Shown one piece after another: positions 47,406 through 47,804 of a stretch of DNA of 64,000 nucleotides. Every line of letters starts with the position of its first letter. Position 1 is the first letter of the stretch. The notes beneath the pieces are model-generated. The model had not been told where the DNA came from and made no database searches. It worked only from the letters and a program-made list of their open reading frames with translations. The stretch is from an uncultured Thiotrichales bacterium (GTDB lineage: Bacteria; Pseudomonadota; Gammaproteobacteria; UWMA-0217): the NCBI GenBank assembly GCA_964620675.1, contig CAZUJU010000009.1, forward strand, positions 13,943-77,942. Reading direction: 5' to 3'. The translations under genes were made by a program, and so were the position numbers.

Positions 47406-47804
47406 TCAGGTGAGCTGGGTACCATGCGGTTCGCTCCAATCCGCCGGTAGCGTAGGCGCAAACGGCAGGAGTCGATCCAGCCCGACGCCGCGCAAGACCG
47501 CCTCGGCATCACCGCTTGCCGTGACGATACGCAAGGAGCCGCGTTCGCGGAAACCCAGGTACACCGCAAGAATCAATTTCAAGCCTGCGCTCGTGACGCA
47601 GCTGAGATCCCGGCAATCCAGCGCGAGATGCTGAATCTCACTGTCCTGTAGCGCGCGGGCGACATGCTCGAGGTCGGGGCTGGTGGTCGCATCGAGCGAG
47701 CCGCGCAAGTGAATGACCGCCCGGCCATCGCTTTGTCTGGTTTCGATTTTCAATCCGCTCATGTTCCGGTCGCTGTTATTCTGTTGTGGGTGCCAAAAGG
47801 CCAC
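47406..47804 (-). CDS. STAS-domain anti-sigma-factor antagonist (SpoIIAA/RsbV/BtrV-like); likely start at MSGLKIETRQ (47762)
   Basis: STAS motifs (LRGSLDATTSPDLEHV, DCRDLSCVTSAGLKLIL); the conserved phosphorylatable Ser in SCVTSAG. First gene of the minus-strand T3SS operon. Confidence 0.75.
   Translation of the reverse strand: MAFWHPQQNNSDRNMSGLKIETRQSDGRAVIHLRGSLDATTSPDLEHVARALQDSEIQHLALDCRDLSCVTSAGLKLILAVYLGFRERGSLRIVTASGDAEAVLRGVGLDRLLPFAPTLPADWSEPHGTQLT

Follow-up and report, generated by a model that had tools for sequence, protein, structure and literature searches.

A STAS-only gene leads a string of type III secretion genes

We analyzed a 64,000-nucleotide stretch of contig CAZUJU010000009.1 from an uncultured Thiotrichales bacterium (hereafter the window), in which a small gene encoding a STAS-domain-only protein stands first in a string of type III secretion system (T3SS) genes, sctX-sctY-sctV-sctN-sctO, as a sequence-only reading of this DNA had proposed (Table 1). 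A matching chromosomal contig, JBHJNS010000050.1, belongs to an uncultured Thiotrichales genome assembled from a stromatolite metagenome (GCA_050330555.1). All six genes lie on the same strand, with a gap of 45 nt between the STAS gene and sctX and with overlapping junctions between sctY and sctV, sctV and sctN, and sctN and sctO, and a scan of positions 46500-48300 found no terminator-like site between the STAS gene and sctX. From this spacing, we infer that the STAS gene is co-transcribed with sctX-sctO. The sequence-only reading had placed its open reading frame (ORF) at 47406-47804: a minus-strand ORF is indeed present there, with its frame open up to a GTG at 47804, but the likely start is the ATG at 47762 rather than this upstream GTG, giving a protein of 118 aa that ends at the stop at 47406. 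The ATG is preferred because the NCBI gene call corresponds to the 118-aa form and because the equivalent methionine is the first residue of P0002, an orthologue with 50% identity.

The product matched the Pfam STAS family PF01740 with an E-value of 5.7e-12 (45.8 bits for a cutoff of 22.6) and scored slightly below the cutoff of the related STAS_2 family (27.3 bits), while NCBI labels it merely as a "STAS domain-containing protein". An AlphaFold2 (AF2) model built with 23 homologues (mean pLDDT 88.5, pTM 0.81) was compared to the PDB using Foldseek, and the top 15 matches included SpoIIAA, TM1442, a mycobacterial antagonist, RsbV, a Haliangium antagonist and RsfB, with E-values of ~1e-7 to 2e-6, TM scores of 0.70-0.82 and rmsd values of 1.5-2.7 Å. 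The matches to 1th8_B, 4qtp, 6m36 and 1vc1 (TM 0.70-0.82, E ~1e-7) identify a single-domain alpha/beta STAS fold, so that the SpoIIAA/RsbV-type protein read from the letters alone was recovered both by a hidden Markov model (HMM) and by a predicted structure. The motif SCVTSAG, in which a conserved phosphorylatable serine had been noticed, is also present: its Ser58 pairs with Ser58 of Bacillus subtilis SpoIIAA in a MAFFT alignment and in a HMMER alignment to PDB 1auz, at the N-terminus of helix 2, where phospho-regulated antagonists carry a Ser or a Thr. Altogether, these results show that the gene encodes a STAS-only regulator with a SpoIIAA/RsbV-class fold and a serine at the phospho-position.

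Close relatives of this protein were few. A word-indexed protein search returned only the protein itself, and an exhaustive search of representative proteins returned one real orthologue, P0002, together with generic STAS proteins. A metagenome scan using an alignment of the window protein and P0002 gave a single match to a 1.9-kb contig, too weak (30% identity) to be of use.

Table 1. Coordinates of the STAS gene, of its upstream region and of the surrounding T3SS genes in the window
Feature	Coordinates	Strand	Evidence
STAS-domain-only protein gene, 118 aa	47406..47762	(-)	Pfam STAS, gene call, AF2/Foldseek, dN/dS
Ser58 codon AGC, in motif V-T57-S58-A-G-L, at the position of the SpoIIAA phospho-serine	47589..47591	(-)	alignments, sequence reading
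Divergent intergenic region, 361 bp, separating the STAS operon from the sctC(N)-sctD operon	47763..48123	.
Candidate extracytoplasmic function (ECF; sigmaE/AlgU-type) promoter, 192 nt 5' of the STAS ATG, facing STAS	47954..47982	(-)
sctX (YscX family), 45 nt 3' of the STAS stop	46995..47360	(-)	TIGR02502, 43.4 bits (cutoff 30); Pfam Type_III_YscX
sctY, TPR chaperone of SctX; ORF open up to 46984	46589..46960	(-)	NF052415, 66.9 bits (cutoff 70); TPR families
sctV, export-gate protein	44487..46589	(-)	TIGR01399, 903 bits
sctN, T3SS ATPase	43165..44490	(-)	NF005391, 709 bits
sctO, stalk protein, last of the gene string	42677..43168	(-)	Pfam YscO, E 1.6e-12
Terminator-like hairpin with T-run, ~136 nt past the sctO stop, where the transcription unit probably ends	42523..42541	(-)
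Divergent T3SS operon, sctC(N) to the 78-aa gene	48124..52485	(+)
sctC, N-terminal part only, 223 aa	48124-48795	(+)
sctD	48802-50193	(+)
sctE	50190-50429	(+)
sctF candidate, needle-sized	50618-50848	(+)	by position; the ORF itself has no significant family match
sctG	50935-51303	(+)
206-aa gene	51413-52033	(+)
78-aa gene	52249-52485	(+)

The STAS gene is kept near sctV in related loci

To see how often a STAS gene accompanies sctV, 80 loci were collected in an SctV scan with one genome per species and a STAS profile was run over all their ORFs. Four of these loci (L038, L037, L031 and L006) carry a STAS gene, each at most ~1.2 kb from sctV, and context look-ups of further homologues added nine more STAS loci (L084, L085, L086 and the L089-L094 group); in the remaining ~72 loci, none was found within ±8 kb of sctV. 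The linkage, counted in 12 loci besides the window, comes in three gene orders. In type A (the window, L089/L090, L038 and L037), the string STAS-sctX-sctY-sctV-N-O is divergent from sctC(N)-D-E-F-G, where sctC(N) denotes an sctC gene for the N-terminal part only, and the L089/L090 locus belongs to a sister metagenome-assembled genome (MAG) that is fully syntenic with the window. In type B (L031 and L084), thrC is followed by STAS-sctV-N-O-sctC(N)-D-E-G, and the stretch read contains no sctX or sctY. In type C (L006, L085, L091/L092 and L094), the STAS gene lies on the opposite strand, flanked by the 3' end of sctX-Y-V on one side and by the 5' end of sctD-E-F on the other; L086/L087 and L093 derive from this type by degeneration, having retained the STAS gene and sctD-E-F and lost most of the rest. 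When SctV proteins were placed on a neighbor-joining tree, types A and B grouped into a single clade, whose six members all have the STAS gene, while type C corresponds to a freshwater Burkholderiaceae group beside the Bordetella/Achromobacter/Castellaniella clade. Since the linkage near sctV is kept in related loci through three gene orders, and since no STAS gene was found in the ~72 others, the association between STAS and the T3SS is conserved and clade-specific, not accidental.

Two of these gene orders showed further particularities. Besides having no sctX or sctY in the stretch read, the type B loci (L031 7474-15327 and L084 10001-17779) have no gene of sctF size where sctE is followed by sctG. 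Among the degenerate type C loci, L086 (7965-8717) and L093 (8282-8857) have a gene beside STAS, on the minus strand, that bears a Sigma70_r2 domain, and in L086 this domain is joined to the C-terminal ~115 residues of SctV (FHIPEP positions 541-656). This arrangement looks like the outcome of a large deletion that would have fused an ECF sigma gene, originally at the opposite extremity of the T3SS cluster, with the 3' end of sctV, which hints that intact type C clusters may carry a BtrS-like sigma factor.

The proteins themselves were then compared with each other and with 114 generic STAS proteins. Those of types A and B come out first or nearly first in each other's rankings, which is not the case for the L037 protein or the type C proteins, so that the idea of one sequence family for all T3SS-linked STAS proteins holds only in part, with L037 and type C falling outside. 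Judging from these rankings, type C may represent an independent recruitment, or a divergence too great to tell. At the phospho-site, seven of the nine aligned loci have a serine, including all the type A and type C ones that were aligned: the window, L089 and L038 have the motif TSAGL, L037 has TSKGL and the aligned type C proteins have SSEGL. The residue ahead of the phospho-site is always Thr or Ser, where SpoIIAA has an Asp.

Evolutionary rates were estimated by comparing the window to L090, its fully syntenic sister genome; as most genes have a dS above 1, the dN/dS ratios are rough. The STAS gene (50% amino-acid identity, dN/dS 0.26), sctX (47%, 0.38) and sctY (50%, 0.37) are the three fastest-evolving genes of the locus, as opposed to sctV (94%, 0.05) and sctN (93%, 0.04), with sctV, sctN, the sctF candidate and sctG all at 93-97% identity. 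The STAS gene is thus under purifying selection and yet fast-evolving, as part of the trio at the 5' end of the operon, and this fast evolution means that sequence alone barely links the family.

A candidate ECF-type promoter faces the STAS gene

In the intergenic region upstream of STAS, a promoter-like motif is found ~190-200 nt 5' of the STAS ATG in both the window (GGAACC-N17-TCTCA) and L090 (GGAACC-N17-TCTGA, 9795-9823, plus strand), with identical spacing, and it is the sole conserved block in a region that has otherwise diverged between the two genomes. The pattern GGAAC-N19-TCTSA matches only once in the 64 kb, both strands included, for 0.28 matches expected. The motif resembles the sigmaE/AlgU-type ECF consensus, GAACTT-N16/17-TCTGA. 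No sigma-70-like promoter was found in 46500-48300, and no Rfam match in 47300-48200. The ECF-like motif was not found 5' of STAS in L038, L031, L084 or the type C loci, and L037 has a weak look-alike; we consider it as a candidate promoter and as a lineage-specific lead rather than a feature of the family. A second copy of the motif, GGAA(A)CCAACC in the STAS-sctX gap (47364-47374), is not kept in L090 and was taken as chance.

The STAS gene belongs to a partial T3SS module

The T3SS cluster of the window (42677-52485) is a partial module located between a dioxygenase gene and dnaE2. Its sctV and sctN products score far above their family cutoffs, and the sctF assignment is based on gene position and on Pfam T3SS_needle_F matches that were obtained only for the gene at the same position in type C loci. 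None of sctJ, K, L, P, Q, R, S, T, U and W, nor any translocator gene, was found in the 64-kb window; sctJ is found farther along the sctC(N)-sctD string in L038 and L037, and sctU and sctT are found nearby in L084. The T3SS is probably functional and split across the genome, because sctV and sctN are under strong purifying selection. Considering one genome per species, the SctV proteins closest to that of the window come from the Thiotrichales MAGs L038 (72% identity) and L037 (60%), and the next ones from Bordetella, Achromobacter, Castellaniella and Endozoicomonas (52-56%). The SctV of the window also groups with the Bordetella, Achromobacter and Endozoicomonas branch. By these sequence relationships and by its YscX, SctY, SctV, SctN and YscO assignments, the system is a member of the Ysc/Bsc family, and since Bordetella-type relatives come right after the Thiotrichales ones, a comparison with Bordetella is apt.

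The sctC product comprises only the N-terminal part of a secretin (N0 and Secretin_N, TIGR02516 positions 2-137 of 463), and its gene ends cleanly 6 nt ahead of sctD. This short form (~200-250 aa) is kept in all the type A and type B loci (window, L089/L090, L038, L037, L031 and L084), and we found nothing in the 64 kb that would encode the C-terminal secretin domain. It resembles a split secretin of the rhizobial RhcC1/RhcC2 type. The 206-aa and 78-aa genes at the end of the same operon are kept in L089/L090, L038, L031 and L084; they have no Pfam or NCBIfam match and a dN/dS of ~0.11, showing that they are under purifying selection.

Beside dnaE2 (52509-55955) lie genes for a RES toxin (56183-56905) and an Xre-like antitoxin (56916-57326), on the minus strand, and this pair is kept in the sister genome. 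At the edge of the window (39-1043, plus strand), a gene encodes a 334-aa protein that starts with an ankyrin repeat and whose C-terminus is charged and rich in proline; proteins with ankyrin repeats are often secreted effectors.

Comparison with known STAS-only proteins

In Bordetella, the STAS protein BtrV, the kinase BtrW and the PP2C phosphatase BtrU are all needed for T3SS secretion (PMC7498569, PMC8256260); BtrV acts post-transcriptionally, and the control of secretion by BtrU/W/V has been described as occurring through "a yet unknown mechanism" (PMC7498569). Like the window protein, BtrV is a single-domain STAS protein with a conserved serine (Ser55) that is tied to a T3SS of the Ysc/Bsc family. 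Unlike it, BtrV is encoded beside BtrW, in a btr locus that also contains BtrU and the ECF sigma factor BtrS and that is located outside the structural operons, whereas the window gene comes first in its sctX-Y-V-N-O string, with no linked kinase, phosphatase or sigma gene. Profile searches using all the T3SS-linked STAS proteins, or only the Burkholderiaceae subgroup, returned no match named BtrV and, where a source was named, none from Bordetella.

SpoIIAA and RsbV provide the best matches in both sequence and structure (PDB 1auz with an E-value of 1e-6), and yet the identity is just 18-25%, the window has TSAGL where these proteins have DSSGL, with a Thr replacing the canonical Asp ahead of the serine, and no SpoIIAB/RsbW kinase or sigma gene is adjacent. 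MlaB, the STAS-only component of the MlaFEDB lipid transporter, is also found among the sequence and fold matches (7ch8, E 7.8e-4), as a weaker structural match than SpoIIAA/RsbV. MlaB binds and stabilizes the transport ATPase MlaF rather than controlling a sigma factor. Unlike mlaB, the window gene is not part of an mlaFEDCB operon and has only T3SS genes as neighbors. Finally, SypA of Vibrio fischeri and RbaV of Rhodobacter are other STAS-only proteins that belong to, or control, a locus for cell-surface machinery and that have a non-sigma output (PMC8256260), but they have cognate kinase/phosphatase partners (SypE and RbaW/RbaY, respectively) and no link to a T3SS.

When we searched the literature for STAS genes located inside injectisome loci, the partner-switchers of Bordetella and Chlamydia were all that came up. 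STAS-only proteins are already known, and the Bordetella T3SS is already known to depend on one of them; in the literature that we searched, we found no description of a STAS gene leading an sctX-Y-V-N-O string, of its conservation beside sctV in two Bsc-related lineages, or of such genes with no linked partner enzymes.

How the STAS protein may act on secretion

Taken together, the data make it quite likely that the STAS protein is dedicated to the T3SS in some form. As for its mode of action, the sequence-only reading had suggested partner switching similar to that of BtrU/V/W, and we tentatively retain a version of it, which we regard as possible rather than probable. The STAS protein would be made from one transcript with SctX, SctY, SctV, SctN and SctO, possibly from the ECF-type promoter upstream, and would act by protein-protein binding, as does the Bordetella partner-switcher BtrV, with phosphorylation of Ser58 toggling its binding state. 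The genes for an RsbW/BtrW-like serine kinase and a PP2C phosphatase would lie elsewhere on the genome, and the output would be a post-transcriptional control of apparatus production or of secretion, with no release of a sigma factor. Co-transcription, phosphorylation, the unlinked partner enzymes and the target are the parts of this scheme that we infer. We favor it since the serine and the SpoIIAA/RsbV-class fold are both kept and since BtrV, the only studied T3SS-linked STAS protein, comes from a closely related system, and the first position in the gene string, the recurrent linkage to sctV with its clade pattern and the purifying selection also speak for it.

Several results weigh against this partner switch. 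No RsbW/SpoIIAB/BtrW-type kinase (HATPase_c_2) and no PP2C/SpoIIE phosphatase was found in the 64-kb window, neither by domain scans nor by reading ORFs by eye, in agreement with the earlier remark that no such gene is visible in it. These searches covered the T3SS genes and the unassigned ORFs by domain scanning, and the ORFs of at least 150 aa and the gap ORFs of at least 80 aa by eye, which is weaker than an HMM scan of each ORF. As far as each related locus was checked, none has a kinase or phosphatase gene near STAS: Pfam tables over ±10 kb were used for the window locus and for nine related loci (L084-L086 and L089-L094), and ORF maps read by eye, with a few Pfam-scanned ORFs, for L006, L031, L037 and L038. 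The protein also falls narrowly short of the NCBIfam "anti-sigma factor antagonist" family TIGR00377 (52.6 bits for a cutoff of 53.45). In the type B loci L031 and L084, the motif reads TAAGL, with an Ala at the phospho-site, and phosphorylation there can therefore not be essential family-wide. The Burkholderiaceae (type C) proteins resemble the window protein no more than generic STAS proteins do, and such similarities do not show a single BtrV-like ancestry of the T3SS-linked STAS proteins.

The strongest rival explanation, which we consider as somewhat unlikely, is that the STAS protein would be an accessory of the export apparatus that works independently of phosphorylation, by binding directly to the cytoplasmic ring of SctV, SctX-SctY, SctN or the FHA-like cytoplasmic domain of SctD, and that tunes assembly or substrate switching. 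The lack of a linked kinase or phosphatase in the 13 loci, as far as each was checked, and the Ala in L031 and L084 both favor such a protein, for which the presence of MlaB among the matches offers a precedent. Gene order points in the same direction, with sctV as the one constant neighbor across the three arrangements, sctD always close, and the type B STAS gene directly 5' of sctV, and so does the shared fast rate of STAS, sctX and sctY, although this rate may just reflect small, weakly constrained proteins. A weaker point is that, in relatives without STAS, the ORFs 5' of sctX resemble by eye a YopN/TyeA/SycN gatekeeper module (a small chaperone and a secreted protein). Conversely, an accessory of this kind does not account for a serine that is kept in most of the aligned orthologues, nor for best structural matches that are phospho-regulated antagonists and not MlaB. 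A more specific form of this idea, which we judge to be rather unlikely, is that in this T3SS lineage the export gate would be the direct target of the STAS proteins, making them a previously unrecognized, clade-specific injectisome accessory; this form is suggested by the gatekeeper-module position seen by eye, by a rate similar to those of SctX and SctY, by proximity to sctV and to the FHA-like sctD through three rearrangements, and by persistence without the phospho-serine.

A canonical anti-sigma-factor antagonist is, in our view, improbable. Here, the unphosphorylated STAS protein would sequester an RsbW-like anti-sigma kinase and thereby free a sigma factor for T3SS genes, a scheme that fits with the fold and the serine, with the ECF-type promoter-like motif kept upstream of the operon in the sister genome, and with the Sigma70_r2 gene beside STAS in L086 and L093. 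No anti-sigma kinase gene and no sigma gene was found inside the T3SS locus of the window, however, and the only ECF sigma gene that a scan for sigma domains found in the window (14640-15236) is 32 kb away, with neighbors that look by eye like rseA/B/C and degP, so that it resembles a housekeeping rpoE. RsbW-type antagonism classically governs sigmaB/sigmaF-type factors, not ECF sigmas. Besides, BtrV, the one T3SS case that was studied, does not act on transcription (PMC7498569). It is far less credible still that the STAS gene is unrelated to secretion and owes its position to chance or to having been carried along as a passenger. Genes for STAS-only proteins are indeed frequent, many of them orphans, and this family is poorly conserved in sequence, but the linkage is seen in 13 loci, with three gene orders and in two SctV lineages, it survives ~40-47% divergence of SctV (the L031 and L037 proteins are 53-60% identical to that of the window), the STAS gene always stays within ~1.2 kb of sctV, and it is under purifying selection.

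Nothing previously established is overturned by these observations, which instead offer a concrete clue to what the BtrU/V/W switch acts upon. With a STAS gene fixed beside sctV in relatives of the Bsc system, sometimes lacking the phospho-serine and, as far as each locus was checked, never accompanied by a linked kinase or phosphatase gene, the search for this target is narrowed to the adjacent export-gate proteins, and the C-terminal part of SctV, SctX-SctY, SctN and the N-terminal part of SctD are the candidate partners of STAS. If the STAS protein does act on the export gate, the long-sought target of BtrU/V/W would be expected among SctV, SctX-SctY and SctD. The STAS gene also marks a compact and unusually organized T3SS module in uncultured Thiotrichales and in freshwater Burkholderiaceae.

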